Sequence record: OR637327.1
DNA: 64,000 bases
Strand: one strand, 5' to 3'
DNA from: Klebsiella phage iPHaGe-KPN-11i
Below, piece by piece: positions 34,459-58,116 of the stretch. Below the pieces are notes generated by a model. It had not been told where the DNA came from. It worked only from the letters and a program-made list of their open reading frames with translations, and did no database searches. Numbering within the stretch: position 1 is the first letter of the stretch; every line of letters starts with the position of its first letter. A program made the position numbers and the translations under genes.

Positions 34459-35016
34459 ATGAACAGAGCACGATTGATGTATGTTATCAATAACTTACGC
34501 AGAGAAGTTAACCAAAATTTCAGTAAAGCGTTAAGTGATTGGTATGTGACAAAGGTTTCAATGACTACAGATCACATCGCAGACCGATTCCTGGATCGTT
34601 CCGCGTCAGTCAAAAAAGACTTTGCGATCTACAGTGAAATTCTTAATAGTCTCGCTAAACATTATTCGTGTAACGTTCTGTATTACGCGGTGAAAGCGAA
34701 AAACGAAGGTATGCAGGAAGTCATTGCATATCGCCGGATTAATGGCAAAGTGTTTGCCTGTGCGTTCACCGTCCAGATGTTCGAAAACATGGATGATTCT
34801 GTTGCTCACGAAAAGCCAGTGATTGCTTTACGATTCCGAACCGTTATCCCTGAGTATACGTTGAGCCTGAACACGCGAAACGCGATCCATGTGAATTACA
34901 TCGCACCTAAAATCAAGTTCGAGTATGACGGCTACAGACGCGTTATGTCACGCCTGGATCGCCTGATTGCTTCAAAAGATTGTCCGCCTCAACTACACAT
35001 GTTGAAAAATATTTGA
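34459..35016 (+). CDS. hypothetical protein
   Basis: A 185-aa ORF, tightly packed (4 nt after the 57B stop). Confidence 0.6.
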   Translation: MNRARLMYVINNLRREVNQNFSKALSDWYVTKVSMTTDHIADRFLDRSASVKKDFAIYSEILNSLAKHYSCNVLYYAVKAKNEGMQEVIAYRRINGKVFACAFTVQMFENMDDSVAHEKPVIALRFRTVIPEYTLSLNTRNAIHVNYIAPKIKFEYDGYRRVMSRLDRLIASKDCPPQLHMLKNI

Positions 35017-35056
35017 AAAAAGCCCTTGCATTCGTGCAGGGGCTTTTGTTATATTA
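35017..35056 (+). promoter_or_regulatory. PeSL-like cassette A: terminator stem-loop (AGCCCTTGCA..TGCAGGGGCT) containing a TTGCAT -35 and extended -10 TGtTATATT
   Basis: AAAAAAGCCCTTGCATTCGTGCAGGGGCTTTTGTTATATTAGGGG. The hairpin plus T-run forms the terminator, and -35 TTGCAT and -10 TATATT are 17-18 nt apart spanning the stem. Confidence 0.6.
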
Positions 35057-35082
35057 GGGGTGTCGAAACAAAGGAGGCAATC

Positions 35083-35223
35083 ATGAAACTTTACTGGCTG
35101 GTGTTCTCAAACGGGTTTGTAATGAAAGGCACTGTTCACTGTGCGAAAACTTATTGCAAATGGAATGAATGCTCTTTCCGTATCCTGAGCGTTGCATCTT
35201 CTCAACCTGTAGGGGATTACTAA
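35083..35223 (+). CDS. small Cys-rich protein (46 aa)
   Basis: AAAGGAGG SD, then the ATG at 35083 giving MKLYWLVFSNGFVMKGTVHCAKTYCKWNEC... Confidence 0.5.
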   Translation: MKLYWLVFSNGFVMKGTVHCAKTYCKWNECSFRILSVASSQPVGDY

Positions 35224-35297
35224 TGACTGGTGATAAGTGGGTTGATAAAACTTTGTTGTTGACAGTAATCTACTTTCTGGTAAAATACCTGGTGTAG
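35223..35297 (+). CDS. possible 24-aa hydrophobic peptide
   Basis: TAATG overlap with the previous stop gives MTGDKWVDKTLLLTVIYFLVKYLV. It overlaps a strong sigma70 promoter, so it may be non-coding. Confidence 0.25.
   Translation: MTGDKWVDKTLLLTVIYFLVKYLV
35259..35286 (+). promoter_or_regulatory. sigma70 early promoter TTGACA-N16-TAAAAT
   Basis: TTGACAGTAATCTACTTTCTGGTAAAAT lies upstream of the small membrane-protein gene at 35313. Confidence 0.6.
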
Positions 35298-35312
35298 ACA
35301 AAGGAGGGAGTT

Positions 35313-35453
35313 ATGAGAAACTTACTGAATATCGCGGAAATCTTTTGCTATGGTGTCGCTGTGTATGTCCTGTTTAACGGTGACGGCGCGGGATACTGGA
35401 TCATGTTCGGTGGTGGATTGTTCCTCTCTTTCCTCAAACGATTCTTTAAGTGA
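35313..35453 (+). CDS. small membrane protein (46 aa, two hydrophobic segments)
   Basis: AAGGAGGGAG SD 5 nt before the ATG, giving MRNLLNIAEIFCYGVAVYVLFNGDGAGYWIMFGGGLFLSFLKRFFK. Confidence 0.55.
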   Translation: MRNLLNIAEIFCYGVAVYVLFNGDGAGYWIMFGGGLFLSFLKRFFK

Positions 35454-35460
35454 GAAATAT

Positions 35461-35784
35461 ATGATGAAAAAATTTAGTGTGATCACCCCTGCTGATCTGA
35501 GAATTCTCGATCTGCGTCAATTATGTGCGGTATTTGGTGGCGAGAAAACGTTGCGTCAGATCTCCGATGAACTGAAAGCGAAATATCCGCACCAATGCCC
35601 GAAATGTGAGGGTAAAGGGTTCGAAGTCAAACGTGTTAACACGTATCCTTCTGGCTTGCCGGATTCTGGCTGGGTTGATCAGATGGAAGATATCAGTTAC
35701 GTGTGTGATATCTGTAACGGGCAAGGCTTCACCAAAGAACGCCTTATCGCAAAACCTGTCAAAGTGGAATATGTACCCGCATGA
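35461..35784 (+). CDS. zinc-ribbon protein (CPKCEGKG...CDICNGQG)
   Basis: MMKKFSVITPADL..; two CxxC pairs. The table ORF extends upstream, and the ATGATG lies at 35461. Confidence 0.6.
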   Translation: MMKKFSVITPADLRILDLRQLCAVFGGEKTLRQISDELKAKYPHQCPKCEGKGFEVKRVNTYPSGLPDSGWVDQMEDISYVCDICNGQGFTKERLIAKPVKVEYVPA

Positions 35785-36083
35785 AAATTACCGATCTCGT
35801 AAAGGCGGCTAATGCGCTGGTAACAAGCGATCATTACGTCAACTACTGCGAGCAATACCCTGTTCCCCTGGAACGCGCGATTGCTCAATCCGGTTATGAC
35901 GGTATCAGTACCGTAACCGTTGAAAACCTGAAAACGTTCATCGTGTTTGCTAACACGTTCTGGATGTACTTACCCGATAATATCGGAATCCGCCAGCCTA
36001 CTTTTTTCACGCTGTGCATGTTCTGTGAAACTTATCTCCCTGAATGCGATGACTACGAAGAACATTATGGAAAAAGTGAATAA
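35781..36083 (+). CDS. hypothetical protein
   Basis: 100-aa ORF with an ATGA overlap with the upstream gene. Confidence 0.6.
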   Translation: MKITDLVKAANALVTSDHYVNYCEQYPVPLERAIAQSGYDGISTVTVENLKTFIVFANTFWMYLPDNIGIRQPTFFTLCMFCETYLPECDDYEEHYGKSE

Positions 36084-36333
36084 AGTATCCCTGATATTCT
36101 TCGATCCGAAACTCGGTATCACGTTCTGTAACGGATTCGCGCCGAACGCCGAAGAAATGTTCAGGATTGCATTTAGCAATGAACCTGACAAACTCGATAA
36201 AGAAGTGTTGGCAGAGATAAACAAAACTGGTACGCTGTATTATGCCCGACGCAACGACATTGTGAACGGCATTCAGTACCAATCAACCCTTGAAAAACTC
36301 AAAACTGAACTGAAAGAAATAGGTGAATTATGA
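36067..36333 (+). CDS. hypothetical protein
   Basis: MEKVNKVSLIFFDP..; start chosen to minimise overlap (the table ORF begins at 35947). Confidence 0.5.
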   Translation: MEKVNKVSLIFFDPKLGITFCNGFAPNAEEMFRIAFSNEPDKLDKEVLAEINKTGTLYYARRNDIVNGIQYQSTLEKLKTELKEIGEL

Positions 36334-36575
36334 CTTCTACAGCTATTCAACAACAAACCATTGATCATGATGCTGAATTCGCACAACTGATCAAAGAACA
36401 TAACGCTTTTGCGGCTTCTCGCGTCAATGAAGAAAGCGAACAGACCCGCCGATCCCTCTGGGTTGCCATTTACCGCGAAGTGTTCAGCGAGAAATCCGCT
36501 AACAAACACACTCAGGCAGTTGATGCAGCAGATAAAGCGCTGGCAGCATACGATCGTAAGTTCGGAGCACAGTAA
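36330..36575 (+). CDS. hypothetical protein
   Basis: 81-aa ORF with an ATGA overlap. Confidence 0.55.
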   Translation: MTSTAIQQQTIDHDAEFAQLIKEHNAFAASRVNEESEQTRRSLWVAIYREVFSEKSANKHTQAVDAADKALAAYDRKFGAQ

Positions 36576-36988
36576 TGGAACGGTCTGCTGGTATTCTCTT
36601 CCTGAATAACGGCAGCGTTTTAATGGGCCACGCAACCGAAACGCCTCATTGGGACATCCCAAAGGGGCATATCGAAAAAGGCGAAGAACCTATTCACGCT
36701 GCGATCCGTGAGTGCTTCGAAGAAACCGGAGTTCTTGTTGAACCGCACGAACTGGAAAGCCTCGGAAGACTGGATTATACCAGTAAAAAAGAGCTTTACT
36801 TATTCGTGTATAAAGGCAATAATTACCCCGAAGCCGATAAATGCTTCTGTGCGTCAACGTTCGTGAAGAACGGGCGAACCATCACAGAAATGGACGGTTT
36901 CAAATATGTTCCGTATAGCCAGATCCGCGATCATGCGCGTAAGACTATGGGACAACTTCTATCTAAACTTGTGGGATATACATCATGA
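36575..36988 (+). CDS. Nudix hydrolase
   Basis: Complete Nudix box GHIEKGEEPIHAAIRECFEETGV (G-x5-E-x7-REUxEExGU). Confidence 0.85.
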   Translation: MERSAGILFLNNGSVLMGHATETPHWDIPKGHIEKGEEPIHAAIRECFEETGVLVEPHELESLGRLDYTSKKELYLFVYKGNNYPEADKCFCASTFVKNGRTITEMDGFKYVPYSQIRDHARKTMGQLLSKLVGYTS

Positions 36989-37365
36989 AAGCAACTACTT
37001 TCCAAATCTGCCAAATGATCCTTCTGGCTACCGCAACCCGCGCCGCTGAACCTATCGCGTATCAGTCATGGGGTGATTCATTCACCGTGAAAAATATTCG
37101 CGATCTGCCTGGACGCCTTTACGCTTCCCCTGATTTCGAACCCGTCGATCCGAATGATTTGACGCTGGAAGAAATGAAAAATCTGGGCTTCCGTAAGTGG
37201 AGCGACGATTCAAACATGATGCTGATCCCTCTGTATCTGTTGCCATACCTGAAAGACGGTTTCCGCGCTATCAGTATCAGCGGTGAAGAATTTGAATTCA
37301 GCACTGGTGAATCAGATAACGATCATCGTATGGGGCTGCTGTCTTTCGGGGCATTGCCTAAATGA
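36985..37365 (+). CDS. hypothetical protein
   Basis: 126-aa ORF, overlapping starts. Confidence 0.55.
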   Translation: MKATTFQICQMILLATATRAAEPIAYQSWGDSFTVKNIRDLPGRLYASPDFEPVDPNDLTLEEMKNLGFRKWSDDSNMMLIPLYLLPYLKDGFRAISISGEEFEFSTGESDNDHRMGLLSFGALPK

Positions 37366-37622
37366 GTCACGTTGATTTCAACACCTTATCTCAATTGGGG
37401 CTGATTTGGAAAATCAATAAAGATATCCTGCATCCCCTGGGGCTGGCGTTGACGCGTGATCCTGAAACTGGCGTATCAATCGGTGCGCTGGTTTCCGATG
37501 ATGGTGTCTGGTCGTTCAGCGAAAAATCAGACTTTGAAAACATCGCAAAGTTGAATAAACTTTATGCTTTACAGGCCGAAGGAAAGCTGTTAGAGTTCCT
37601 ACAACAAAACGTGAAAGAGTGA
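37362..37622 (+). CDS. hypothetical protein
   Basis: 86-aa ORF. Confidence 0.55.
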   Translation: MSHVDFNTLSQLGLIWKINKDILHPLGLALTRDPETGVSIGALVSDDGVWSFSEKSDFENIAKLNKLYALQAEGKLLEFLQQNVKE

Positions 37623-37628
37623 TATATT

Positions 37629-37967
37629 ATGACTTACAAAGCTGGCGATCGTGTAGTAACCGTTAAGGATGGTAAGTTTGCCAAAGCCGGAACGCACGGA
37701 ATTGTCAATACCGACCGTGATGGTATTCTGGGTGTGGTTGGGCCGGATCATGGAAAATCAACATTATTCGAAACAGACAAAGTGCGTATCGCAACCGCTG
37801 CTGATCCTGGTTACTATGGAACCCGCGACGAGTTCGAAAGTGAAAAGGATCAGGAGATCGCAGAACTGAAAACTAAAGTTCATAACGCGCGGGTGTTGGC
37901 GGTGATTTGCCTTACCGTTGCGGCTATCAATACTGGTTTGTTGGGTTGGGTGGTGAATCATGTCTAA
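37629..37967 (+). CDS. hypothetical protein with C-terminal TM helix
   Basis: 112 aa, with the hydrophobic C-terminus VLAVICLTVAAINTGLLGWVV. Confidence 0.55.
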   Translation: MTYKAGDRVVTVKDGKFAKAGTHGIVNTDRDGILGVVGPDHGKSTLFETDKVRIATAADPGYYGTRDEFESEKDQEIAELKTKVHNARVLAVICLTVAAINTGLLGWVVNHV

Positions 37968-38493
37968 AGATGATATTCCGGTTCATAACCGTATCCGCGA
38001 TCAGTTAACTTTTCGCAGTCGCGATCACGCGATCATGGTTGGGAGTTATCTGCATTGGTGGAAGAATAAAGATCTGGATCTGAATCCATCTTATCAGCGC
38101 CCCTATGTGTGGACGCAGAAAGAGCAAGATGCGTTTCTGACTACCCTGATCAGTGGTTTCCCTTGCGGTATCATCGCGATCGCGGTTGATAGCCAGTTCA
38201 ACGAAACTCACTGGGTAGAAGTCATCGACGGTAAACAACGCCTGACGACGATTATCAAAGTCTACGAAGGTGAAATTGGGATTCCTATGCCGGACGGTTC
38301 CCGTTTGTTCTGGGACGAAATGCCACGACACGAACAGCGAGCCTTTGAAAACATTTCATTACCTGCCCTGGGGCTGGATGAATGCACCAAAAAGGATCGT
38401 CTGGAATTCTTCATCAAACTGAACTTCGCGGGTGTGCCTCAATCTCAAGATCACATGAACCGCGTCCTGGAAATGTATAAGGCTGCAAAATGA
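37960..38493 (+). CDS. DUF262 / ParB-like nuclease-domain protein (GmrSD N-terminal-like)
   Basis: It has the IDGKQRLTTI motif (the DGQQR signature of DUF262/ParB-Srx) preceded by a conserved hydrophobic core, in a 177-aa stand-alone domain. Confidence 0.65.
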   Translation: MSKDDIPVHNRIRDQLTFRSRDHAIMVGSYLHWWKNKDLDLNPSYQRPYVWTQKEQDAFLTTLISGFPCGIIAIAVDSQFNETHWVEVIDGKQRLTTIIKVYEGEIGIPMPDGSRLFWDEMPRHEQRAFENISLPALGLDECTKKDRLEFFIKLNFAGVPQSQDHMNRVLEMYKAAK

Positions 38494-38798
38494 ACAAAGA
38501 CGAAGAACTGTATATGGATTCAGCAGAACCAAACCAGTTTATCATCGGCAAAGAAGATCATGAACTGTTGCAAGCGGTTAAAAACTTGCTGGCGTATTCT
38601 CATATCCGCGTACCGAATGGCGATAATGCAAAACTGGAAATCTCGTGTTCTGGTTATGGTTACACCGCTACCGCTGATAAACTCATTAGCTATTCCGCAT
38701 CAAGAACCCGTGAACTGGTTCATTACCGCGATAAATTGAGTGAAGAAATCCATCAAACTCAGGTAATTGTAGACCAGTTGCCAGAAAAATTCGATTAA
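38490..38798 (+). CDS. hypothetical protein
   Basis: 102-aa ORF. Confidence 0.55.
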   Translation: MNKDEELYMDSAEPNQFIIGKEDHELLQAVKNLLAYSHIRVPNGDNAKLEISCSGYGYTATADKLISYSASRTRELVHYRDKLSEEIHQTQVIVDQLPEKFD

Positions 38799-38802
38799 AG
38801 TG

Positions 38803-38842
38803 AAAAAAGCCCTTGCAGCAATGCAGGGGCTTTGTTATATTA
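38803..38842 (+). promoter_or_regulatory. PeSL-like cassette B (terminator hairpin AGCCCTTGCA-GCAA-TGCAGGGGCT; -35 TTGCAG, 17-nt spacer, ext. -10 TGtTATATT) followed by the conserved leader CACACATCGAAACGAAAC
   Basis: AAAAAAGCCCTTGCAGCAATGCAGGGGCTTTGTTATATTACACACATCGAAACGAAACAGAGAAAGGAAAACATCATG. Confidence 0.6.
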
Positions 38843-38877
38843 CACACATCGAAACGAAACAGAGAAAGGAAAACATC

Positions 38878-39081
38878 ATGAACATGAACAAAAACATTGC
38901 TTCTGTAGTTGGTTGTGAAGTTTCTAACGCAGAACGTTATGACAACGGTTTCTCTTTCTGTGTTCCGACTGAACTCGATGCGTACAAAGCCGCATACAAA
39001 TACCGCACTATGCCGATGGTGAACGTTACTTACTCACCGAACATCGAAATGTGGGTTGTTCAGGTTTACAACAAAGTATGA
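38878..39081 (+). CDS. hypothetical small protein (67 aa)
   Basis: It sits downstream of PeSL-like cassette B and starts MNMNKNIASVVG... Confidence 0.55.
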   Translation: MNMNKNIASVVGCEVSNAERYDNGFSFCVPTELDAYKAAYKYRTMPMVNVTYSPNIEMWVVQVYNKV

Positions 39082-39272
39082 ACTTCCACGAACGCAAGGC
39101 CGCACGAACCGATTATTATATGCGGTTCGTGTATGGCTGGAAATTACGGAAATGTGTTGCATGTAATGGATCTGGGCGATATGATAGCGACCGATCTCCG
39201 AAATGCAGTTCATGTAATGGAACCGGAAAAGAACGCTTTAAACCTGTGAGGAATATATTATGCAACATGTGA
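39078..39272 (+). CDS. mini-protein with DnaJ-type zinc finger (2x CxxCxGxG)
   Basis: CVACNGSGRYD...CSSCNGTGKE. Confidence 0.55.
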   Translation: MNFHERKAARTDYYMRFVYGWKLRKCVACNGSGRYDSDRSPKCSSCNGTGKERFKPVRNILCNM

Positions 39273-39676
39273 ATCTCAACCCAAAAATGGAAAAGTATCT
39301 GAATCGCCGTCATGACAACCAGGCGCAAAGGGATCAGGAACGCGCAATCAACATTGAAACGGCTAAACTCCTTACCCAGATGTTCCGTAAGTTTCCTAGC
39401 AAATTCCCATGCAATTCTATGCATTCAAGTAACTGTATCAGCGTAGAACTGGCTGATAAGCGTTGTATCAGGGTTAACCTGGCTTACGGGTTATCCGAAG
39501 ACGGATATAACCTGGTGATGGGCTGGACATCAATGATTGGCAACTTCGTTGAACAGAACAATATTGAGTTCAATATGATGCGCTCTGATTTGTTCCAGTG
39601 TCCGGTCGATTCAATCAATATCGGTAGCCTTTACGCTATCCTTCGCGCACAATATGATTTGTGGAGTACAAAATGA
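39260..39676 (+). CDS. hypothetical protein
   Basis: 138-aa ORF. Confidence 0.55.
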   Translation: MQHVNLNPKMEKYLNRRHDNQAQRDQERAINIETAKLLTQMFRKFPSKFPCNSMHSSNCISVELADKRCIRVNLAYGLSEDGYNLVMGWTSMIGNFVEQNNIEFNMMRSDLFQCPVDSINIGSLYAILRAQYDLWSTK

Positions 39677-40263
39677 AAGTAACAAGTGAAAAACTTGAAG
39701 AAATTGAAAAATCAGCCCGTTCGATTTCTTTTATGATGGGTAGTAAGTGGACTCTCGTTGAAAATATGAGCATCCAGGGAAATCAGGAATATGGTTTCAG
39801 GGGCAAAGAGTATAAACGCGCGTTCTCATATGGTGTTCCATATGGCGACAGCCCTACACAGATTAAAAGCTGGGAAGAGGGTCTCGGAAAATATCTGGAA
39901 ACCGTAGATCCGCAAACGGTTCTGGATCTGGTTAGCGATCTGTCACTCGCGCTTCGAGACAAGCAAAAAGCAGAATCAGAAGCCGCACACTGGAAAGCAA
40001 ATCATGAATGTGAAGTATCCCGCGCCCGTGTCCTCAAAGAGCGTCCTGATATGCCGCTGGAGCGCGTCAACGCATACAACCGTATGGTTGAGTTAGAAGA
40101 GGAAAACAAAGCCTTAAAACAGCGTATAGCGAGCCTGGAGGATGTCAATCAAACCCGCATGATGTTGCAGATGATTCAGGGTATGGTGATTGATACCCAA
40201 AACATGAACCGCGAACAACTGCGCTACTGGCAAACACATTTCCGCAATCCTAACGGGTGGTAA
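39673..40263 (+). CDS. hypothetical coiled-coil protein
   Basis: MKVTSEKLEEIEK..., with a GGAG SD. The table ORF starts at 39661. Confidence 0.55.
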   Translation: MKVTSEKLEEIEKSARSISFMMGSKWTLVENMSIQGNQEYGFRGKEYKRAFSYGVPYGDSPTQIKSWEEGLGKYLETVDPQTVLDLVSDLSLALRDKQKAESEAAHWKANHECEVSRARVLKERPDMPLERVNAYNRMVELEEENKALKQRIASLEDVNQTRMMLQMIQGMVIDTQNMNREQLRYWQTHFRNPNGW

Positions 40264-40264
40264 T

Positions 40265-40513
40265 ATGTTCGGACGAAAACGAGAATGTAAACATGTTGCT
40301 ACCGGATGGATGCGGGGAACTCCTTACGCCTGGATGCATCATTCCGTAACCGATGGGATCGGGCGTATACATGGCGATATGTATGCAACATGCGACAAGT
40401 GCGGGGAGAAGTTTTTGATGTGTAAGATACACGTTGACCACGCGATCCGTGAGCTGGCAAAACATCCAATCACCCGCGCCGAAATCCTTCGAATCCTCGA
40501 AGAAACAAAATAG
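40265..40513 (+). CDS. hypothetical protein
   Basis: 82-aa ORF. Confidence 0.5.
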   Translation: MFGRKRECKHVATGWMRGTPYAWMHHSVTDGIGRIHGDMYATCDKCGEKFLMCKIHVDHAIRELAKHPITRAEILRILEETK

Positions 40514-40526
40514 CACTTTTTGTTTA

Positions 40527-49235: not shown

Positions 49236-49347
49236 AACGCTGAATTTATCGCGAACAGACTACGTGCGGCGAAACCCATTTAAAAATGTTGCATAAATAA
49301 TAAGACGAGGGTATCATAGCCCTCTCTTGTTACAAATAGGTATTACA

Positions 49348-49995
49348 ATGAAGAAAATTATCTTTGCTGCCAGCATTTTCTTATGCTCTTTTTCTGGCAA
49401 CGCGGCGACTGATCCGTTAGGAGAGTTTATCCAAACACTCCCCGCTGTGAAGTCAACTTTACCGCTACAACAAGCAACAGTAATGAAGAAAGCGCCAGCC
49501 AATGCCCCCAGCTATGTTAAGGAATTGGATGATATTACACCAAAGCAGAAAAAGGTTTTGGAGTACGCTTTCAGGATCGGAAATGAGTACGATCGCAAAA
49601 CTGCAAAGCCAGTTGAATCGGAAACATCGAAACGTTTGGGATATCATTTAGCGGCTATTGCCTGGATCGAGTCTCGCGCATGTGAGAACGTAGGGAAAGG
49701 CAAAAAGAATCATCATGCTTATGGTTGTTTTCAAGTAACAGCCCGTAGCGCGTCCGCACGAATGGATAAATCATATTCCAAACGCGTAGTAATCAATAAG
49801 CTCGAAACCCTTCGGGGTGGTTCCAAGTACGCACTTCACGAACTGGAATACTGGCTTGATTACCACAAAGGCGACTTAAAAAAGGCGCTGGCGAGTTATA
49901 ACGCGGGGTTCAAGTATGGAAAGAAAGAAGCCCGTGAGTATGCTCGCATGGTTAACCATACCGCGAAGCTGTTAGAAGAAAAACGCATTATCTGA
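49348..49995 (+). CDS. secreted lytic transglycosylase-like protein (SLT domain)
   Basis: It has the signal peptide MKKIIFAASIFLCSFSGNAA and an ES...GxxQ core (AIAWIESRACEN...AYGCFQVT). Confidence 0.6.
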   Translation: MKKIIFAASIFLCSFSGNAATDPLGEFIQTLPAVKSTLPLQQATVMKKAPANAPSYVKELDDITPKQKKVLEYAFRIGNEYDRKTAKPVESETSKRLGYHLAAIAWIESRACENVGKGKKNHHAYGCFQVTARSASARMDKSYSKRVVINKLETLRGGSKYALHELEYWLDYHKGDLKKALASYNAGFKYGKKEAREYARMVNHTAKLLEEKRII

Positions 49996-49996
49996 T

Positions 49997-50040
49997 AAAA
50001 AGCCCTTGCGAAATTGCAAGGGCTTTTTTATTATGTGTGT
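49997..50040 (+). promoter_or_regulatory. PeSL-like cassette E (hairpin AGCCCTTGCGAAATTGCAAGGGCT; -35 TTGCGA; -10 TATTAT)
   Basis: AAAAAGCCCTTGCGAAATTGCAAGGGCTTTTTTATTATGTGTGT has a 17-nt spacer spanning the stem. Confidence 0.6.
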
Positions 50041-50062
50041 ACCAACTATTGAGGATTAAATC

Positions 50063-50467
50063 ATGAGTACATCACATCGAGTTATTACCAGTCACCCGAC
50101 TATCATCAAGCCGAACATGCTACACATCATTCAGGGTGTGCTGGACGAACTGAACAAAGATCCAAAGGTTAAAGTAGACACCATCACGGTCGATCGTCAT
50201 CGCATGGAATCTTTCAGCATTTACTTCGCATATGGTGAAGAAAAACGCAAACTGTTTATCTGTGAAAGTCAAGATATGTATCTTGACGTTGATGATAACA
50301 CAATTCATAGCGGTGGCGTTTACTTCAACCTGAACGTGTGGGGTAGCAACAAAGAGATCATGGATATCGTGAAAGTGGGTATTCGTAAGCACGTCCCGAA
50401 TGACGTTAGCATTTACGAATGTGTTAATGATGCAATTGAAGATCGCTTTGTGCGTGTGGGGGCGTAA
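50063..50467 (+). CDS. hypothetical protein
   Basis: 134-aa ORF downstream of cassette E. Confidence 0.6.
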   Translation: MSTSHRVITSHPTIIKPNMLHIIQGVLDELNKDPKVKVDTITVDRHRMESFSIYFAYGEEKRKLFICESQDMYLDVDDNTIHSGGVYFNLNVWGSNKEIMDIVKVGIRKHVPNDVSIYECVNDAIEDRFVRVGA

Positions 50468-51078
50468 TGGAAACTAAACTGACACCAGAACAGCAGTTAG
50501 TAATTATTGATGAACGTATCGACGAGATCAGGGCGGTAATGAAACCCTATCAGGAAAAGCTGAGTGGGTTGCTGAAAGCCCGTCAGGAGGTCAAAGACGA
50601 GATCGACAAGGCTACCGCGTCCCGCGTCCGTGCGATGACTCCAAAGAAACGCATGGAGTTTTACATCAATTCACCGAACAGCGGACATGAAATTTTCAGT
50701 GATGCGACTAAGTTCTTCCAGGATATGGGGCTGGGGATCGACGGGTACAACCCAGAAATAAATCAGCATATCCTCCGTATAGCGATGAATGAGGATCGTA
50801 GCAATCTCGAATCAGTCCTGAAATCGCTTCAACGCGTGAAACCATATGTGAAACCGATCGGCGGTAAACTACTATTCGATATCTTCGAACATACATGTTC
50901 ACAGTTCAACACGTATTGGTTAGCCTTTGACGTTGCAGAAGAACGCTGGATGTGCTTCACTGGCTGGAGCCTGAAACGCAATCAAAAGCCGGAATTTGAA
51001 AGCGATAGTTTGCGATCAGTGCTTGCGTATGTCTGCGAAACCCATTATTATAACCCTATCGAAAACGATTCATACTAA
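50467..51078 (+). CDS. hypothetical protein
   Basis: 203-aa ORF. Confidence 0.6.
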   Translation: METKLTPEQQLVIIDERIDEIRAVMKPYQEKLSGLLKARQEVKDEIDKATASRVRAMTPKKRMEFYINSPNSGHEIFSDATKFFQDMGLGIDGYNPEINQHILRIAMNEDRSNLESVLKSLQRVKPYVKPIGGKLLFDIFEHTCSQFNTYWLAFDVAEERWMCFTGWSLKRNQKPEFESDSLRSVLAYVCETHYYNPIENDSY

Positions 51079-51087
51079 GGTAAAACG

Positions 51088-51408
51088 ATGAAAAAACTTG
51101 CGCTGTTACTCACTCTGTTCGCTGGCTTCGCTCATGCTGATGATCGACTGGCTGAACTCTGCAATAATCGTGACATTAAAGACGTTGCGGTATGTGAACA
51201 GGTGATTGCCGAACAACTGGACGCGGCTTATGTGTGGGGAGAAGAAAACGCGCACCTCTTCAAGCGTCAGAAGCTGGTTAAACAGCGTGAGTTTTTGCAG
51301 TCTGAACCGATGATGACCCTCTGCACCAAAGCGCCAAATAAGGAACGTTGTGAAAAACTCCGTACTTACCTGGTTGAAGAATATAACGCTGGTATAGGAT
51401 TATACTGA
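51088..51408 (+). CDS. secreted protein (signal peptide MKKLALLLTLFAGFAHA)
   Basis: 106 aa, with 4 Cys in the mature part. Confidence 0.6.
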   Translation: MKKLALLLTLFAGFAHADDRLAELCNNRDIKDVAVCEQVIAEQLDAAYVWGEENAHLFKRQKLVKQREFLQSEPMMTLCTKAPNKERCEKLRTYLVEEYNAGIGLY

Positions 51409-51554
51409 TGATGGGATTAGTGATCTTTTATGGGTGTGTGATTGCTGCTGCAATCATTATCTGGTATTACGTTAAAAAGCCAAACGAAAGCTCGTTCCCT
51501 GTATATGATGACGAGTTGGAAGCGTGGCAAAGATGGGACGACGAATTTAAATGA
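51408..51554 (+). CDS. small membrane protein (48 aa)
   Basis: ATGATG overlaps the preceding TGA and gives MMGLVIFYGCVIAAAIIIWYYVKKP... Coordinates approximate. Confidence 0.4.
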   Translation: MMGLVIFYGCVIAAAIIIWYYVKKPNESSFPVYDDELEAWQRWDDEFK

Positions 51555-51649
51555 ACACAGGTTATATCTTAATGTGTGTTATTGTTGTGATCGCGGGGCT
51601 GGCTGTGCTGGCTTACCGCCACTATACAGGTGATGAAAATGATTATTAA
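51551..51649 (+). CDS. small membrane peptide (32 aa)
   Basis: MNTGYILMCVIVVIAGLAVLAYRHYTGDENDY, with an ATGA overlap. Confidence 0.35.
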   Translation: MNTGYILMCVIVVIAGLAVLAYRHYTGDENDY

Positions 51650-52157
51650 CAAGGAGAAAGAAACCGATTACACTCTTTCTCTTCTACGGGAATCTTTCTC
51701 GTATAATAAAGATACGGGTATCTTTACTTGTATAAACAAGAAAGCAAAACGATATTTTGGGAAACCTGCCGGAACGTTACATAACAGTGGGTATATCCGA
51801 TTAGGCATTCGTGTAGATGGAAAGCCAGTATTATATCTTGCTCAACGTGTTGCGTGGGCTTTTGTTACTGGAAGTTGGCCTGAAAATATGATTGACCATA
51901 AAGATACGATTAAACAAAACAACGCTTTTGATAATCTACGAGAGGCTACACGTTCAATCAATGCGTATAATTATCGACGGATAAGCAACGCAAATGCTTC
52001 TGGATATAGGGGTGTTCATGTTGATTCTCGTGGAAATCGTGTACGATATGGTGCATATTATGGGAAAACGAGATTAGGTACTTTTGACAGTGCCGAAGAA
52101 GCACACGAAGCATATATGAAATATGTTAAATCTATTCATGAGGTTGTGATTGAATGA
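51633..52157 (+). CDS. HNH-AP2 homing endonuclease (copy 2)
   Basis: YLAQRVAWAFVTGSWPENMIDHKDTIKQNNAFDNL (HNH_3) plus GYRGVHVDSRGNRVRYGAYYGKTRLGTFDSAEEAHEAY (AP2). The table start at 51630 is a GTG. Confidence 0.8.
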   Translation: MKMIINKEKETDYTLSLLRESFSYNKDTGIFTCINKKAKRYFGKPAGTLHNSGYIRLGIRVDGKPVLYLAQRVAWAFVTGSWPENMIDHKDTIKQNNAFDNLREATRSINAYNYRRISNANASGYRGVHVDSRGNRVRYGAYYGKTRLGTFDSAEEAHEAYMKYVKSIHEVVIE

Positions 52158-52366
52158 GACCGCAAGAACAAAAGCTGTTAAAACACAAGCTGAAACAACT
52201 GGGAGAAGCGTATCAGGATTATGCCGAAGATGATGATCCTGATTCACGTAACTACAATCAATCCTGTATCGACGATATTACAGCGGATATCCTGGATTTC
52301 GTTGAAAATGAAATCACCGATGCTGTTCGTGATGCGGTAGCAGTGGAGCGAGCTAATCATGACTGA
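52154..52366 (+). CDS. hypothetical acidic protein
   Basis: 70-aa ORF. Confidence 0.5.
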   Translation: MRPQEQKLLKHKLKQLGEAYQDYAEDDDPDSRNYNQSCIDDITADILDFVENEITDAVRDAVAVERANHD

Positions 52367-52574
52367 CAAAATCAAAGCTAAAGCAATGAAGGTGATTGCG
52401 ACATACGGAACACTCCGTTGGTGTAACGCGCAGGTGTGCGGGTGTATGGGTTGCGCAAATCATACTATGACGAAAGAAGAGTATGATATTGCTATCCAGA
52501 TACCGGAAATCAAAGAGCATCTTGCGCGACATAATGAAAAACTCATGGGTAAAGGATGGTTTTCAATTGGCTAA
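52359..52574 (+). CDS. hypothetical protein
   Basis: 71-aa ORF. Confidence 0.5.
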   Translation: MTDKIKAKAMKVIATYGTLRWCNAQVCGCMGCANHTMTKEEYDIAIQIPEIKEHLARHNEKLMGKGWFSIG

Positions 52575-52764
52575 CGCACACATTATAGAAAAAGTTCGTT
52601 GTCGGGATTGTCATTTTCCTTTGATTTGCGTCATGAACATTGACAAACCCCCTTACGACGAGTGGGATTGGTGGATATACTGTTCAAACAAAACATGCAA
52701 AAACCATGAAGGTGAGGGCAAATTCCAGAATCATATTAAGTTTGTGGAGCGTGTCAATGGCTAA
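52534..52764 (+). CDS. possible small Cys-rich protein
   Basis: MKNSWVKDG...CRDCHFPLICV..., with no clear SD, overlapping its neighbours by ~40 nt. Confidence 0.3.
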   Translation: MKNSWVKDGFQLANAHIIEKVRCRDCHFPLICVMNIDKPPYDEWDWWIYCSNKTCKNHEGEGKFQNHIKFVERVNG

Positions 52765-53341
52765 ATTGTATTATCACTATGCATCCATGAACGCTGGCAA
52801 AAGTGCGCGACTATTGACGGACGCGCACAATTACAAAGAGCGCGGTATGCGAGTTGTAATCTATAAGCCAGCAATCGACACCCGCACATCAAACACAGTG
52901 AGTTCGCGTATCGGGCTGAACGAAAAGTGTGAATTGATTGCGCCTGATATGGATCTGTTCTGGGACATTCAGCGCCGGAATAAAATTGCTTGCATCTTCG
53001 TTGACGAGGCGCAATTCCTTTCGAAGAAAAACGTTTTCGATCTATGTCGCGTTGTTGATGAACTCGAAATCCCTGTAATGGCTTACGGTCTGCGTACTGA
53101 TTTTCAGTTGAATCTGTTCGAGGGTTCTTACTGGTTGCTGGCCTGGGCAGACGAGATCCGAGAACTGCGCGGAATGTGTCACTGTGGGCGTAAAGCAACT
53201 ACGGTTGCACGTATCGACGCACAAGGCAACTTCGTAACCGAAGGGGCGCAGGTTGAGATCGGAGCCGAAGACAAATACGTTTCGCTCTGTCGCAAACATT
53301 ATCACGAAAAACTTCTTGATAATGTTGGTCTGAACTGTTAA
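52757..53341 (+). CDS. tk: thymidine kinase
   Basis: YASMNAGKSARLLTDAHNYKERGMRV (T4: YAAMNAGKSASLLIAAHNYKERGMSV), FVDEAQFL, VMAYGLRTDF and CHCGRKAT...SLCRKH. Confidence 0.93.
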   Translation: MAKLYYHYASMNAGKSARLLTDAHNYKERGMRVVIYKPAIDTRTSNTVSSRIGLNEKCELIAPDMDLFWDIQRRNKIACIFVDEAQFLSKKNVFDLCRVVDELEIPVMAYGLRTDFQLNLFEGSYWLLAWADEIRELRGMCHCGRKATTVARIDAQGNFVTEGAQVEIGAEDKYVSLCRKHYHEKLLDNVGLNC

Positions 53342-53371
53342 GGTGTATTCAGACAAACAAAGGAGAACACT

Positions 53372-53764
53372 ATGAGCCGTACTTACCGTAAGAAATATGT
53401 TCCAGTCCGTGATAAGTCCTCTATCGAACAAATCGAAGAGACAAAAGCATTTTCACAGTATTATGCACAGCACGGAGAAAGCCCTGATGGTATTCGTTGG
53501 TACTCAACCAACTGGAAACACAAATCAGGTTGCGCATATATCCGGTTCGATAAAAACCTGAATCGCGACGGTAACAAAGCTCATCGTGATATCTCCGCGA
53601 TGCTTTCAATCGCTGTGAAAAAGATTGATTCGAAAGTACGCGCTAAAATGCGTCAGGAATTACGCCGGATGAAAGCTGGCGTAATTGGATGGGATGAAAA
53701 TATCGAGAACGCAAATAAGATCCGCGCTTTTGAGCGTAGCTTATGCTGGTATGAGATAACTTGA
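53372..53764 (+). CDS. hypothetical protein
   Basis: 130-aa ORF preceded by an AAAGGAGAA SD. Confidence 0.6.
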   Translation: MSRTYRKKYVPVRDKSSIEQIEETKAFSQYYAQHGESPDGIRWYSTNWKHKSGCAYIRFDKNLNRDGNKAHRDISAMLSIAVKKIDSKVRAKMRQELRRMKAGVIGWDENIENANKIRAFERSLCWYEIT

Positions 53765-53788
53765 TGTATTTTTAGACTAATTTTACAT

Positions 53789-53821
53789 AAGGGGCGATTC
53801 GCCCCTTTTTTGCTATAAATA
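53789..53821 (+). promoter_or_regulatory. intrinsic terminator (AAGGGGCGATTCGCCCCTTTTTT) immediately followed by an exact T4 late-promoter box TATAAATA
   Basis: GGGGCGATTCGCCCC + T6, then GCTATAAATATATAC on the plus strand, upstream of the ORF at 53872. Confidence 0.6.
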
Positions 53822-53871
53822 TATACAGGAACGGATCTATTGTTGATCCGTAAGCACGTAGAGAATTGCTT

Positions 53872-54156
53872 ATGAACATTAAACGCATATCTAAAGCGCT
53901 GATGTTTGGTTTGTTAATCTTGTCTCCGTCATCACATGCTGATGATAGGTCAGTAGTCGCCAAAGAGTTCGATTACTATATCAATGCGGCGCTACAGGTA
54001 TATCTTGACACCATCCCTCCCAGCGTAAATACCAGTGAACTATTCTATAATTACATGGAACGAAAATGGCAGCAGAAGCAATGTAAATCCGAACCCGAAT
54101 GTAAACGTTTAGGGCTACGGGTTGCAAGTGAATTCGCCGCTATTCATCGTTCATAA
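53872..54156 (+). CDS. secreted protein (signal peptide)
   Basis: MNIKRISKALMFGLLILSPSSHADD... Confidence 0.55.
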   Translation: MNIKRISKALMFGLLILSPSSHADDRSVVAKEFDYYINAALQVYLDTIPPSVNTSELFYNYMERKWQQKQCKSEPECKRLGLRVASEFAAIHRS

Positions 54157-54159
54157 GGG

Positions 54160-54549
54160 ATGAAGATGCAGACGTTTAACGAAGTAACAGAACGCGATAC
54201 CGCGAGTAAAATTGATGCCTTTATTGGCACTTGCTTAATGTCTGTAACCTATATGCACAGCGCACATTTTGCGACTGGTTCATATTCACAGCATAAAGCA
54301 TTTGAAGGGTTTTACGAAGATATGCAGGATTTGGTTGATAAATTCACCGAAATCCATATAGGCATTACTGGTCGATACAAACCCGTATTAAAAACAGAAA
54401 ATGTGCTTGACACGGTCGCGTATCTCCGTAAAATAGCCGATGAAGCCAACGAAATCTATGATTCAGTAGATAGTTCATTGAAGAACGTCCTGGACGAGAT
54501 CAAAGGCTTGTGCTATCAAACGATTTACAAGCTGACAAAACTTTCTTAA
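54160..54549 (+). CDS. hypothetical protein
   Basis: 129-aa ORF. Confidence 0.55.
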   Translation: MKMQTFNEVTERDTASKIDAFIGTCLMSVTYMHSAHFATGSYSQHKAFEGFYEDMQDLVDKFTEIHIGITGRYKPVLKTENVLDTVAYLRKIADEANEIYDSVDSSLKNVLDEIKGLCYQTIYKLTKLS

Positions 54550-54556
54550 AAAGAGT

Positions 54557-54584
54557 TTGACAAGCGAAAAAGTGATGATAGAAT
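54557..54584 (+). promoter_or_regulatory. sigma70 early promoter TTGACA-N16-TGaTAGAAT
   Basis: TTGACAAGCGAAAAAGTGATGATAGAAT; coordinates approximate. Confidence 0.6.
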
Positions 54585-54610
54585 AACTATCGAATTGAAA
54601 CATAAACCCA

Positions 54611-55537
54611 ATGGAAATAATGATGAACTTAAACACTATCGTAAACAACCCGAAGAAAACCACACTGATCGCTCTGGGCGTAATCGCCGCTCTGTGGCTG
54701 GTTCCGAACTCGTACACTATCGTTCAGGATGGTACGGTAAAAACTCAAACCTTCATGGGTAAAGTTTCACCGAAGCCTGTTCTGCCTGGTTTCCACCTGG
54801 TAAATCCACTGGCTGATTTCGAGGTGTTCAACACCAAAGACATCGCAATGAAGTTCGACAAGTTGCAGGTTCCGTCCCAGGATAAATTCAAATCCACTGT
54901 GGATATGACCGTGATGTTACAGTTCGATGGTAGCAAAGCCCCGATCAACCGTATCAATGCGGGTAGTCAGGATCAGGCGCTGGATAAATATGTGACTGAA
55001 AAACTTCTGTCAACTGTCCGTGAGTTCGGTAAATCTGTACCGAAAGCACAGGATCTGTATAATGCAGAAGTTCAAAGCCAGCTACAGATCGCGATTCAGC
55101 AGGAAGTAGAAGAGTATGCCCGTCCTTACGGTTACACCGTGAAACAGGTATTCTTGCAGGATATCGACCTGCCGGAAGCGATCAAGAAGCAGGTTGAAAA
55201 CACGAAAATTCGTGAAGAACAGGTGAACGCAGAAAAAGCAGAACTTGCGCGTAAAGAGCAAATCGCTCAACAGGCGGTTGTTCAGGCAGTAGCCGACAAA
55301 GAAGCCCGTAGCAACGCTGCACAAGCTAACGAACGTGATGCTGATGCCCGTCTGTATGCGGCTAAGAAAGAAGCCGAAGCAAACGCCATTCTGCAACGCA
55401 CAATCACCCCAGAAATGATCCGCTGGAAAGAACTTGATGTTCAGCAGACCATCGCGGAAAAATATCAGGGCGGTGTACCTCAAACTGTCATGGGTTCTGA
55501 TTACGCTGGTAAAGTGATTTTCGATTCTCGTAAATAA
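54611..55537 (+). CDS. SPFH / Band-7 (stomatin-prohibitin-HflK/C-like) membrane protein
   Basis: It has an N-terminal TM (LIALGVIAALWLV), an SPFH core with an ..FDS.. C-terminus, and an A/E/Q-rich coiled coil (EEQVNAEKAELARKEQIAQQAVVQ...). The start is 54611, or 54620-54623. Confidence 0.7.
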   Translation: MEIMMNLNTIVNNPKKTTLIALGVIAALWLVPNSYTIVQDGTVKTQTFMGKVSPKPVLPGFHLVNPLADFEVFNTKDIAMKFDKLQVPSQDKFKSTVDMTVMLQFDGSKAPINRINAGSQDQALDKYVTEKLLSTVREFGKSVPKAQDLYNAEVQSQLQIAIQQEVEEYARPYGYTVKQVFLQDIDLPEAIKKQVENTKIREEQVNAEKAELARKEQIAQQAVVQAVADKEARSNAAQANERDADARLYAAKKEAEANAILQRTITPEMIRWKELDVQQTIAEKYQGGVPQTVMGSDYAGKVIFDSRK

Positions 55538-55543
55538 GGGTTT

Positions 55544-55570
55544 AAAGCCCCCAGAGCGGGGGCTTTCTCC
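55544..55570 (+). terminator. intrinsic terminator AAAGCCCCC-AGAGC-GGGGGCTTTCTCC
   Basis: A GC hairpin plus a U-rich tail. Confidence 0.6.
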
Positions 55571-55586
55571 GAACGAGAATACTACA

Positions 55587-55685
55587 ATGAACATAAAACA
55601 GATCATCCTTACTATCTTCATTTCGCTATTCTTCGGCTTTATTGGCGGTTTTCTTGGTGTATTGGTGATTGCGTCTGTTTTATGA
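55587..55685 (+). CDS. possible 32-aa hydrophobic peptide
   Basis: MNIKQIILTIFISLFFGFIGGFLGVLVIASVL, with a weak SD. Confidence 0.3.
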   Translation: MNIKQIILTIFISLFFGFIGGFLGVLVIASVL

Positions 55686-55710
55686 TTAACCTTTAAACGT
55701 GGAGCACGTT

Positions 55711-56766
55711 ATGAAACAATTTGATAAAGCTGTCGTAATTGGCAGATTCCAACCCTTCCATAATGGTCATGCAGCAATGGTGCGTAAAGCACTCGGAGAA
55801 GCAAAGATCGTTTACATCCTTCTGGGTTCAGCATATGCTTACCCTAACGTTTTAAACCCGCTGACGGCGCGTGAGCGTCAAACCATGATCTTCTCATGGC
55901 TTAATGCTAACTTCCCGATCGAAGATGTTGTTCGTGTTCAGTTTGAGAACATTCCAGATTATCTTTACAACGAAGAGAAATGGAAAACCTCTGTTCGTAC
56001 TGCTATCAGGGAAACCAAAGGCGACAAAATCGCTATCTACGGTTACGAAAAAGATGCAGGTTCATACTGGCTTAAAGCGTTCGGATGGACACACGTACCA
56101 GTTCCACCTGTCCAGATTAACGGCAAGGATCTATCAGCAACCGATCTTCGTCCGATTATCTTTAACCATAAAAACGGGTGGGATAAGCAACTGTTGCGCT
56201 TTGTTCCTCAAACAACAGTCAATTATATTGACAAATGGATGATGGAAGACACGTTCTGGCGTTTATTCTACGAATACGAGAAATGGGAGAGCGAATTGGA
56301 GAAATTCAAAAACTACCCATACCCCGACGCGCTGAACTGCTGCACGGGTGATAGCGTGGTTGTGTGTAACAATCACCTGCTAGTAATTCGTCGTAAGTTC
56401 GCCCCAGGTAAAGACGCGTTAGCCCTTCCCGGCGGACACAAAAACGCAAATGAAACGTTCCTGGATTGTGCGATCCGTGAACTGCTCGAAGAGGTGCGGA
56501 TCAAAGTTCCTGAAAAGGTTATCCGTGGTTCAATCCGCAATTCGATGTTGTTCGATCATCCGAAGCGTTCCGTACACTTCTCAAAACCGACTGTGGCGCA
56601 GTACATCAAGTTAGAGCCTAACAATGATGGAAGTCTGCCCCGTATTATGGGCGGTTCTGACGATGCGTTAGAGGCGTTCTGGATGCCCTTACATGAGGTC
56701 GTGCAACGACAAGGGGAATTCTTCGATGACCACTATCAAATCGTTGTAGCTTTCACGGGACTCTGA
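55711..56766 (+). CDS. bifunctional nicotinamide-mononucleotide adenylyltransferase / Nudix hydrolase (NatV/NadM-Nudix-like)
   Basis: An N-terminal HxGH nucleotidyltransferase motif (VIGRFQPFHNGHAAMV) and a C-terminal Nudix box (GGHKNANETFLDCAIRELLEEVRI). The table start at 55699 is a GTG; the ATG is at 55711. Confidence 0.8.
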   Translation: MKQFDKAVVIGRFQPFHNGHAAMVRKALGEAKIVYILLGSAYAYPNVLNPLTARERQTMIFSWLNANFPIEDVVRVQFENIPDYLYNEEKWKTSVRTAIRETKGDKIAIYGYEKDAGSYWLKAFGWTHVPVPPVQINGKDLSATDLRPIIFNHKNGWDKQLLRFVPQTTVNYIDKWMMEDTFWRLFYEYEKWESELEKFKNYPYPDALNCCTGDSVVVCNNHLLVIRRKFAPGKDALALPGGHKNANETFLDCAIRELLEEVRIKVPEKVIRGSIRNSMLFDHPKRSVHFSKPTVAQYIKLEPNNDGSLPRIMGGSDDALEAFWMPLHEVVQRQGEFFDDHYQIVVAFTGL

Positions 56767-56777
56767 TAAAAGATTAA

Positions 56778-56818
56778 AAAAGCCCTTGCGTTCGCGTGAG
56801 GGCTTTTGTATTATATAC
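56778..56818 (+). promoter_or_regulatory. PeSL-like cassette F (hairpin AGCCCTTGCGTTCGCGTGAGGGCT; -35 TTGCGT; -10 TATTAT)
   Basis: AAAAAAGCCCTTGCGTTCGCGTGAGGGCTTTTGTATTATATACACATACC. Confidence 0.55.
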
Positions 56819-56850
56819 ACATACCGCATGAATAATGAAAAGGAAGAAAA

Positions 56851-57868: not shown

Positions 57869-58116
57869 TTCACACAATTAGCGTTATTATGGGTGATGTC
57901 GTAAACATCAATGGACACGATTACTACGTAGCGGAAATCAATACAAAGGGTAATCGTGAGATCTTGGAACTGGACATTGTAAGGCCGTCCGAAGGGCAAT
58001 CCCTTACAATCGAAGTGGTTCATAACACGAACACAGGGGAAGACGTAGTGAAGCCAGTTCTGGCCCGTCTTCCGGTGTTCTACTGTGAAAAGTCAAAACG
58101 TTGGAAAATGAAATGA
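57865..58116 (+). CDS. hypothetical protein
   Basis: 83-aa ORF. Confidence 0.55.
   Translation: MIHTISVIMGDVVNINGHDYYVAEINTKGNREILELDIVRPSEGQSLTIEVVHNTNTGEDVVKPVLARLPVFYCEKSKRWKMK

Follow-up and report, generated by a model that had tools for sequence, protein, structure and literature searches.

The closest described relatives of the element considered here are the promoter early stem-loops (PeSLs) of phages RB49 and phi1, which were defined by Arbiol et al. 2010 as sigma70-like promoters with an upstream A/T-rich tract and a downstream Shine-Dalgarno (SD) sequence and start codon, repeated in hyperplastic regions (PMC2839356). Their stem-loop is GC-rich and most commonly lies between the -35 box and the -10 box or overlaps the latter (PMC2839356). 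In lacZ fusions these elements acted as strong promoters and terminators, and mini-circles produced by recombination of neighbouring copies were detected experimentally; phage RB43 was mentioned solely for "PeSL-like sequences" near gene 43 (PMC2839356). PeSLs were subsequently extended to T4/PST and KVP40/nt-1 by Comeau et al. 2014 (PMC4122927). A stretch of 64,000 nt from Klebsiella phage iPHaGe-KPN-11i (record OR637327.1; i.e. the window) contains five copies of a cassette, numbered 1-5 from left to right, in which a terminator-type hairpin is merged with a sigma70-type promoter sequence. Each cassette is interpreted here, with a probability of roughly 0.8, as a composite of an intrinsic terminator and a host sigma70 early promoter that would insulate and re-prime successive early transcription units, recombination being a by-product.

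The window was assigned to the genus Pseudotevenvirus (i.e. the RB43/RB16/GAP161/leB group). The region shares 95-98% identity with Enterobacter, Cronobacter and Klebsiella phages of that genus, and its identity with Klebsiella phages of the genus Slopekvirus (i.e. the KP15 group) is 80-90%. The original prediction, made from the sequence of the window, had placed the cassettes among the PeSLs of pseudo-T-even phages; the phage is indeed T4-like and bears PeSL-type elements, but RB49 and phi1, the source of the PeSL definition, belong to a different lineage. The cassette-bearing region is accessory and early-type, running from genes 3/1/57A/57B towards the baseplate gene 25, and contains nudE, a radical-SAM gene, an endolysin gene, phoH, vs.1, tk, rI, genes for NMN adenylyltransferase and a cytosine methyltransferase and many open reading frames of unknown function. 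A long run of + strand genes surrounds the five cassettes.

Strong copies begin at 35016, 38803, 40526, 49997 and 56776, all on the + strand, with a stop codon before and the next start codon after each. The order of parts was the same in every copy: an A-run, a GC-rich hairpin of 9-13 bp, a T-run and a -10 hexamer (TATATT or TATTAT). The run of five or six A residues directly follows or overlaps the stop codon, and an SD sequence and ATG are found 27-38 nt past the -10. A -35-like hexamer, TTGC(A/G)N, lies inside the left arm of the hairpin, 17-18 nt 5' of the -10. A base-by-base check gave TTGCAT, TTGCAG, TTGCAA, TTGCGA and TTGCGT for copies 1-5, with spacers of 18, 17, 17, 17 and 17 nt. The -10 is TATATT preceded by TGt in copies 1-3 and TATTAT in copies 4 and 5. 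These data agree with the spacing of 17-18 nt and the merging of terminator and sigma70-type promoter that had been predicted, the latter at the level of anatomy in each copy. A predicted TTGCA -35 is present in copies 1-3 but not in copies 4 and 5. Similarly, the predicted stem is shared in so far as all five copies contain a hairpin, but an exact-stem search found the literal stem AGCCCTTGC...GCAAGGGCT in copy 4 only; the right arms of the other copies are GCAGGGGC, CCAGGGGC or GTGAGGGC and pair via G·U wobbles, with copy 3 having GCCCC and a shorter stem. The module had been described as about 40 bp in length, which proved too short: copies 2 and 3 are 87% identical over ~80 bp (38804-38882 versus 40526-40607), a stretch that takes in the leader ACACACATCGAAACGAAACAG as well as the SD sequence and ATCATG.

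The repeat was confirmed, and its occurrence is far above what chance would give. A relaxed pattern (AAGCCCNTGC-N4-12-GGGCTTT) matched four sites in the window as compared to none in 100 shuffles. A hidden Markov model (HMM) of the five copies gave exactly five strong + strand matches in the 64 kb (E 5e-12 to 5e-15), the same five that had been predicted; these all fall in the 57A-to-gp25 accessory region, and the window's 30 kb of structural genes contain none. The next-best HMM site (31195-31222; E 0.017) is a plain bidirectional terminator between convergent genes. Its sequence, AAAGCCCCAACCGAAAGGAAGGGGCTTT, follows the same A-run/GCCCC/T-run plan without a promoter and separates gene 2 (i.e. 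the DNA end protector) from a - strand gene. A sixth orthologous copy was present just past the window end in every relative, and the complete genome of the close relative EcL22g contains ~12-13 family members, with a same-strand SD sequence and ATG after each copy whose downstream sequence was inspected. Rfam covariance models gave no matches at the gathering score in 30000-64000 of the window. A search for a host origin of the cassette in 5,426 complete Escherichia coli genomes yielded no match, and the 16-mer CATCGAAACGAAACAG gave scattered, chance-level matches to unrelated taxa in 596 Gb of bacterial genome contigs, a result that is uninformative as the pattern is too short.

The anatomy of the cassettes fits the published PeSL definition, with sigma70-like -35 and -10 boxes at a spacing of about 17 nt, a stable stem-loop within or next to the promoter, an A/T-rich tract 5' of the -35, an upstream stop codon, a downstream SD sequence and start codon, and a concentration of the repeats in the hyperplastic accessory early region. 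The proposed match to PeSLs was upheld for a lineage-specific version: at the sequence level, the cassettes qualify as a lineage-specific PeSL family, of a kind that is already known and is partly annotated in KP15. As in RB49 and phi1, they are intergenic composites of -35/-10 boxes and a GC-rich stem-loop in the hyperplastic early region, with an A/T-rich tract before and an SD sequence and start codon after them; in both cases there are many copies per genome, the stem-loop often lies between the -35 and -10, and recombination of neighbouring copies can delete the open reading frames between them, here in one clear case. The differences lie in the consensus, which is AAAAAGCCCTTGC-loop-GCAGGGGCTTTTGTTATATT and has its -35 within the left arm, in the RB43-group lineage and in copy number (~12 per genome versus ~50 in RB49/phi1). 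The present copies are, moreover, conserved in position across genera, and only a small minority of indels involve them; function and mini-circles were measured for RB49/phi1.

The PeSLs/PmSLs of T4/PST and KVP40/nt-1 are likewise lineage-specific variants of this composite (PMC4122927). The nt-1 stems, A3-4G3-loop-C3T3-4, resemble the A-run/GCCC...GGGC/T-run design of the cassettes, and the 'half' PeSLs described for the T4/PST and KVP40/nt-1 sets resemble a hairpin-less half cassette at 40882-40952 (PMC4122927). In those phages, however, the stem-loop is usually just 5' of the promoter, whereas the cassette hairpin overlaps the -35 and spans the spacer. In the GenBank record of the Slopekvirus KP15 (GU295964; 608-645 of locus L014), the site orthologous to cassette 3 carries two labels, a MEME promoter motif and an ARNold terminator, so the motif itself had already been annotated. 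The two features are separate predictions there, the promoter is called 'middle', and the accompanying paper contains no discussion of a composite or of a recombination role (PMC5219037). The morons of lambdoid phages are also bracketed by their own promoter and terminator, but their signals do not form a conserved repeat, and the units described here are multi-gene and syntenic.

Positions and indels were compared with eight Pseudotevenvirus relatives, a second genus being represented by Slopekvirus mtp5. The cassettes and the immediately following genes were observed at the same places in 8/8 relatives and in mtp5. Variation was analysed for 26 distinct cassette sequences, drawn from the window, the eight relatives and other genomic sites. 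The columns that never vary comprise the GCCC/GGG core, the T-run and the TT of the left-arm TTG, the G of which is kept in at least 90% of copies. Within the -10 hexamer, T at -12, A at -11, T at -10 and T at -7 are invariant and the neighbouring positions vary. The stem core aside, these are the most conserved -35 and -10 bases of sigma70 promoters.

Pairing in the stem was examined in the 16 copies with one shared stem register, for which 97.9% of cells are standard pairs as compared to 24-64% in slid registers. Positions T10, T11 and G12 of the left arm never vary, and every one-sided change at those three pairs is a change of the right arm (i.e. U-A to U-G, or G-C to G-U). Compensatory changes were observed at two loop-proximal pairs (C-G to A-U; A-U to C-G or G-C), and copy 3 of GAP161 and Slopekvirus exhibits a double change of the closing pair from G-C to A-U. 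Variant hexamers keep or improve the -35 (e.g. TTGACT in mtp5 and at 123685 of EcL22g). A left-arm TTG that stays the same while the right arm changes is the pattern expected if the left arm must remain a -35 while the stem needs only RNA pairing. One 45-nt sequence would, on this reading, satisfy RNA-level (terminator) and DNA-level (promoter) constraints together, with the asymmetric substitutions providing a clean natural experiment. The folding energies of the + strand RNA hairpins, which overlap the -35 and fill the spacer, range from -18.9 to -21.7 kcal/mol, and the z-scores lie between -4.6 and -6.6. The - strand hairpins are weaker in 5/5 copies because G·U pairs turn into A·C mismatches, the gap being only 0.8-0.9 kcal/mol in copies 3 and 4; this asymmetry of folding points to selection on the rightward transcript.

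In the proposed mechanism, RNA polymerase arriving from upstream would produce a transcript that folds into the GC-rich hairpin, with the U-run next to it, leading to intrinsic termination. The same double-stranded DNA would act as a host sigma70 promoter whose -35 (TTGCNN) is supplied by the left arm and whose TGn-extended or plain -10 follows 17-18 nt on, right after the T-run. Transcription would restart ~7 nt downstream of the -10, and the new mRNA would lack the hairpin and start with the conserved leader and SD sequence. The five copies, and the sixth beyond the window, would in this manner divide early transcription into successive units of 1.7-11 kb, each insulated from the one before and primed anew. 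The units headed by cassettes are multi-gene, with 5 to ~25 genes in 1.7-11 kb, and the first genes behind the cassettes belong to PHROG families of unknown function. As near-identical direct repeats of 30-80 bp, the cassettes also act as substrates for homologous exchange, seen as occasional interval deletion and as gene conversion between copies; this is, on the evidence at hand, a by-product and not the main role. We infer termination, promoter activity and early timing, with activity being suggested by analogy with the reporter assays of RB49 and phi1. Predicted early promoters of RB43 prefer a G at -33 (PMC1524935), a preference that fits the TTG of the cassettes. Read as unit boundaries, the cassettes would provide a ready operon map of the accessory early region in phages of the RB43 and KP15 groups, which include many therapy candidates against Klebsiella, Enterobacter and Cronobacter.

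Several observations weigh against this interpretation. The -35 hexamers agree with TTGACA at just four of six positions, the U-run of copy 2 is short (TTTG), the stem of copy 3 is imperfect and the A-run 5' of each stem is able to base-pair with the U-run, possibly to the detriment of termination. Homologous cassettes of T1-like phages (see below) lack the TTGCA hexamer, so a -35 may be dispensable given a TGn-extended -10. Stand-alone promoters (35259-35286, 44857-44884 and 54557-54584) and stand-alone hairpins (33798, 45194, 48829, 55547 and 61768) coexist with the cassettes in the region, and the composite is therefore one option among several used by the phage. Transcript maps for these genera were not found in the searchable literature.

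The alternative that survives best, though unlikely, is that the elements are only intrinsic terminators or stabilisers of mRNA 3' ends, that the -35/-10 likeness derives from A/T-rich flanks and that read-through or other promoters account for the expression of the genes downstream. The GCCCC...GGGGC hairpin with a T-run is a generic terminator form in this DNA, as seen in the stand-alone hairpins listed above and the terminator at 31195, most of which have no adjacent -10, and promoter-like matches in this AT-rich region only modestly exceed those in shuffles (47 versus 36.6 ± 6.6). Such an origin of the promoter likeness is opposed by the T/A/T..T of the -10 and the TTG, which are (near-)invariant at a fixed distance of 17-18 nt in the 26 diverged copies while neighbouring positions vary, by the strictly right-arm substitutions at the TTG pairs and by the common leader and SD sequence at a constant distance. 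The half cassette, which has no hairpin, also retains the -10 and the leader.

Slightly less probable is a promoter part that is activator-dependent or middle-mode, requiring a phage or host factor, and is not a plain sigma70 early promoter. The KP15 label for the motif is 'putative middle promoter', the -35 hexamers are imperfect, and copy 3 and the half cassette bear a palindromic box, TAGCA-N5-TG(C/T)T(A/T), which in T1-like promoters (as TAGCA-N5-TGCTA) lies a constant 22 nt 5' of the -10 with its centre at ~-42, a geometry like that of class II activators. However, this box is missing from 4/5 window copies, and a TTG at 17 nt combined with a TGn-extended -10 should be enough for the sigma70 holoenzyme. 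A MotA/middle-promoter reading was rejected on the criterion of a Mot box, (a/t)(a/t)(a/t)TGCTTtA centred at -30, together with a motA gene: the cassettes have no TGCTT at -30, and RB43 has neither motA nor a detectable middle-promoter consensus (PMC1524935). As the RB43 group lacks motA and the motif lacks a Mot box, the KP15 record probably mislabels what is an early sigma70-type promoter. A sigma54 reading of the TAGCAC-N-TTGC box was also rejected, since the sigma54 consensus has an invariant GG and N5 spacing and the box has AG and N3.

Recombination involving the cassettes was directly observed at one junction. Alignment of leB and Banach revealed a single chimeric cassette, consisting of the left flank of copy 2 and the loop, right arm and downstream gene of copy 3, with loss of the 1.65-kb interval. 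The switch occurred inside the A-run or left arm, with the exact point and the copy-3 allele being slightly different in each phage. The copy-3 leader is of the copy-2 type in phi1_146002, EC-W2, ENT3 and EcL22g, which indicates conversion between copies. The interval between cassettes 2 and 3 (38878..40513) is the only one deleted by recombination of two cassettes. In GAP161 part of it has been replaced, and one replacement there stops 19 nt short of copy 3; EC-W2 has lost part of it by another route. The EC-W2 event is a 2,974-bp deletion (37044-40019 versus 9324-9331 of locus L006) that has both ends inside genes, removes cassette 2 and fuses two open reading frames into a 303-bp coding sequence, with cassette 3 still carrying the copy-2-type leader. 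One gene of the interval (39078-39272; 64 aa) encodes a CxxC-type zinc-ribbon-like motif with weak matches to DnaJ_CXXCXGXG and to the Q-like antitermination family phrog_6060 (E 3e-6).

Against the eight relatives, 24 indel or replacement events with 41 breakpoints were identified, and 3/41 breakpoints fall in cassettes, no excess over the share of cassettes among gene junctions (5/77). Many other events are located at overlapping stop/start junctions. In at least three, homing-endonuclease genes take part: 46880-47455, 60892-61428 and, in Banach, a replacement at 57299-58526. Such genes (HNH and others; at the first two sites and at 27829-28587 of locus L004) vary in presence among relatives and explain several indels here independently of the cassettes. 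A 164-bp insertion at 40881 was rejected as a cassette event as it is joined at a TAA microhomology. The cassettes are stable unit boundaries that occasionally recombine and explain only a small part of gene-content variation. The original prediction had described them as recombination hot-spots, for which the leB/Banach chimera and leader conversion provide examples but which the breakpoint share does not support. It had further regarded the small downstream genes as shuffled cargo, and this was not sustained: the same genes are found behind the cassettes in all eight relatives and mtp5, and the units are multi-gene. The comparison that it recommended, of copy numbers and between-cassette gene content, returned copies in the relatives, including those of EcL22g, and variable cargo in the interval between cassettes 2 and 3, but few breakpoints at cassettes. 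For this lineage, these stable landmarks temper the "shuffling" model of PeSLs.

It is highly improbable that the copies are a selfish or dedicated mobile repeat (i.e. like miniature inverted-repeat transposable elements or repetitive extragenic palindromes) or the site of a specific recombinase, with gene movement as the main role as in a strong PeSL mini-circle model, because the features that would suit it (i.e. one cassette-to-cassette deletion with crossovers inside the left arm or A-run, leader mosaicism between copies 2 and 3, hairpin loops inverted between relatives, a related cassette in an unrelated phage family and the RB49/phi1 mini-circles) are opposed by positions conserved across two genera, constant co-orientation with genes, a cargo interval (2-3) found once, at the syntenic site, in each of 169 phage records, a breakpoint share about as expected, the location of most indels at overlapping stop/start junctions or homing-endonuclease genes, and the lack of target-site duplications.

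The hairpins of some copies differ in orientation between phages. The copy 4 hairpin of leB is the exact reverse complement of 49997-50029 of the window (loop GAAATT versus AATTTC), with a TTG still in the left arm, and copy 1 of phi1_146002 has a CGAA loop in place of the TTCG of 35016-35047, again with the left-arm TTG kept. At the DNA level, these inversion sites (19518 of locus L002 and 5409 of locus L003) suggest template switching within a strand or an exchange of arms. Cassettes 5 and 6 (the latter at 39805 of locus L001) have identical 22-nt hairpins, GCCCTTGCGTTCGCGTGAGGGC, despite being 11 kb apart and having unlike -10 and leader parts, and copy 2 of Slopekvirus mtp5 bears the copy-1 hairpin. 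This sharing of hairpins points to concerted evolution.

A relationship with another phage family was detected for copy 3. A blastn search with this copy (window 40511-40606) matched T1-like Drexlerviridae (Webervirus, Veterinaerplatzvirus and others) with 75-78% identity over ~100 nt, and 828 phage records matched when the Webervirus version was used as the query. The shared part comprises AAATAGCACTTTTTGTT, a shorter AAAAGCCCC...GGGCTTTT hairpin, a TGnTAT -10, the leader CATCGAAACGAA and ATCATG. In Webervirus mtp25 (locus L137) there are at least 15 copies of TAGCA-N5-TGCTA followed by 22 nt (often a hairpin), TATTAT and CATCGAAACGAA. The motif of these phages (Webervirus mtp25, IMGroot and Alina; Veterinaerplatzvirus) thus resembles cassette 3 in its box, its hairpin (in some copies), its -10, its leader and its ATCATG; it differs in a shorter hairpin that lacks the TTGCA hexamer, in a box-to--10 distance of 22 nt versus 33 nt and in flanking genes that are otherwise unrelated. 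The same box occurs at copy 3 (40511-40525), 11 nt further from the -10 than in the T1-like promoters, in the half cassette (40883-40897) and at three other sites in EcL22g, and could be a putative factor-binding site or an unusual -35. No paper on these T1-like/cassette motifs was found in the literature.

The gene behind copy 3, which encodes a DUF5417 protein, has a homologue in mtp25 (64% identical; 396-677 of L137) that lies directly behind a box promoter and a CAACGAAACGAA leader. The presence of this gene behind a box promoter in both phages indicates a promoter-leader-gene module shared by two phage families. A tblastx comparison of the 3-kb Drexlerviridae loci detected nothing shared but the cassette, the flanking genes being unrelated and the DUF5417 homologue being confined to a different promoter copy. 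The 82-aa gene upstream of copy 3 (40265-40513) is restricted to Pseudotevenvirus and Slopekvirus, and its co-transfer was therefore rejected. Tentatively, and with the odds somewhat against it, the cassette family may extend beyond T4-like phages, with a module made up of the copy-3 promoter, leader and hairpin plus the DUF5417 gene being shared with T1-like Drexlerviridae of the same hosts, either by horizontal exchange or through a common factor that binds the box at ~-42. If true, the PeSL idea would widen, with regulatory modules serving as a currency across phage families and not only being exchanged inside one lineage. This cross-family homology is the part that could open new ground, the remainder being largely ordinary as PeSLs are known in other T4-like phages.

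Coordinates of the cassettes, the genes that follow them and the related elements in the window and in Drexlerviridae
Feature	Position	Strand	Details
Cassette 1	35016..35082	+	A-run and hairpin 35016-35047, loop TTCG; TTGCAT 35026-35031; 18-nt spacer; TGt-TATATT -10 35050-35055; leader, SD AAGGAGG; stop codon upstream 35014-35016
Gene after cassette 1	ATG 35083	+	46 aa, phrog_7770
Cassette 2	38803..38877	+	hairpin 38803-38833, loop GCAA; TTGCAG 38813-38818; 17-nt spacer; TATATT 38836-38841; leader ACACACATCGAAACGAAACAG
Gene after cassette 2	ATG 38878	+	67 aa, phrog_7982
Interval between cassettes 2 and 3	38878..40513	+	five small genes, all of PHROG families of unknown function
Cassette 3	40511..40602	+	upstream box TAGCACTTTTTGTTT 40511-40525; hairpin 40526-40556; TTGCAA 40536-40541; 17-nt spacer; TATATT 40559-40564; leader same as cassette 2
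Gene after cassette 3	40603-40881	+	92 aa, DUF5417 (PF17438), Frd.1-like
Half cassette (no GC hairpin)	40882..40952	+	TAGCACGAATTGCTA box 40883-40897; 22 nt; TATTGT 40920-40925; leader ACACACATCGAAACGAAGGAGG; ATG 40953
Cassette 4	49997..50062	+	perfect 14-pair hairpin 49997-50029; TTGCGA 50006-50011; 17-nt spacer; TATTAT 50029-50034
Gene after cassette 4	ATG 50063	+	134 aa, phrog_8072
Cassette 5	56776..56850	+	hairpin 56776-56807, loop TTCG, two G·U pairs; TTGCGT 56786-56791; 17-nt spacer; TATTAT 56809-56814
Gene after cassette 5	ATG 56851	+	64 aa, phrog_14073
Homologues in Drexlerviridae	L011 ~1490-1585; L012 ~1490-1580; L013 ~1465-1562

A further element of the window combines a hairpin with a different class of promoter motif. 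At 53791-53821, 5' of an rI-like lysis-inhibition gene (53872-54156), a GC hairpin (GGGGCGATTCGCCCC) with a T-run is followed after 8 nt by TATAAATA, a T4-type late-promoter motif, and this arrangement looks like a terminator/late-promoter composite.

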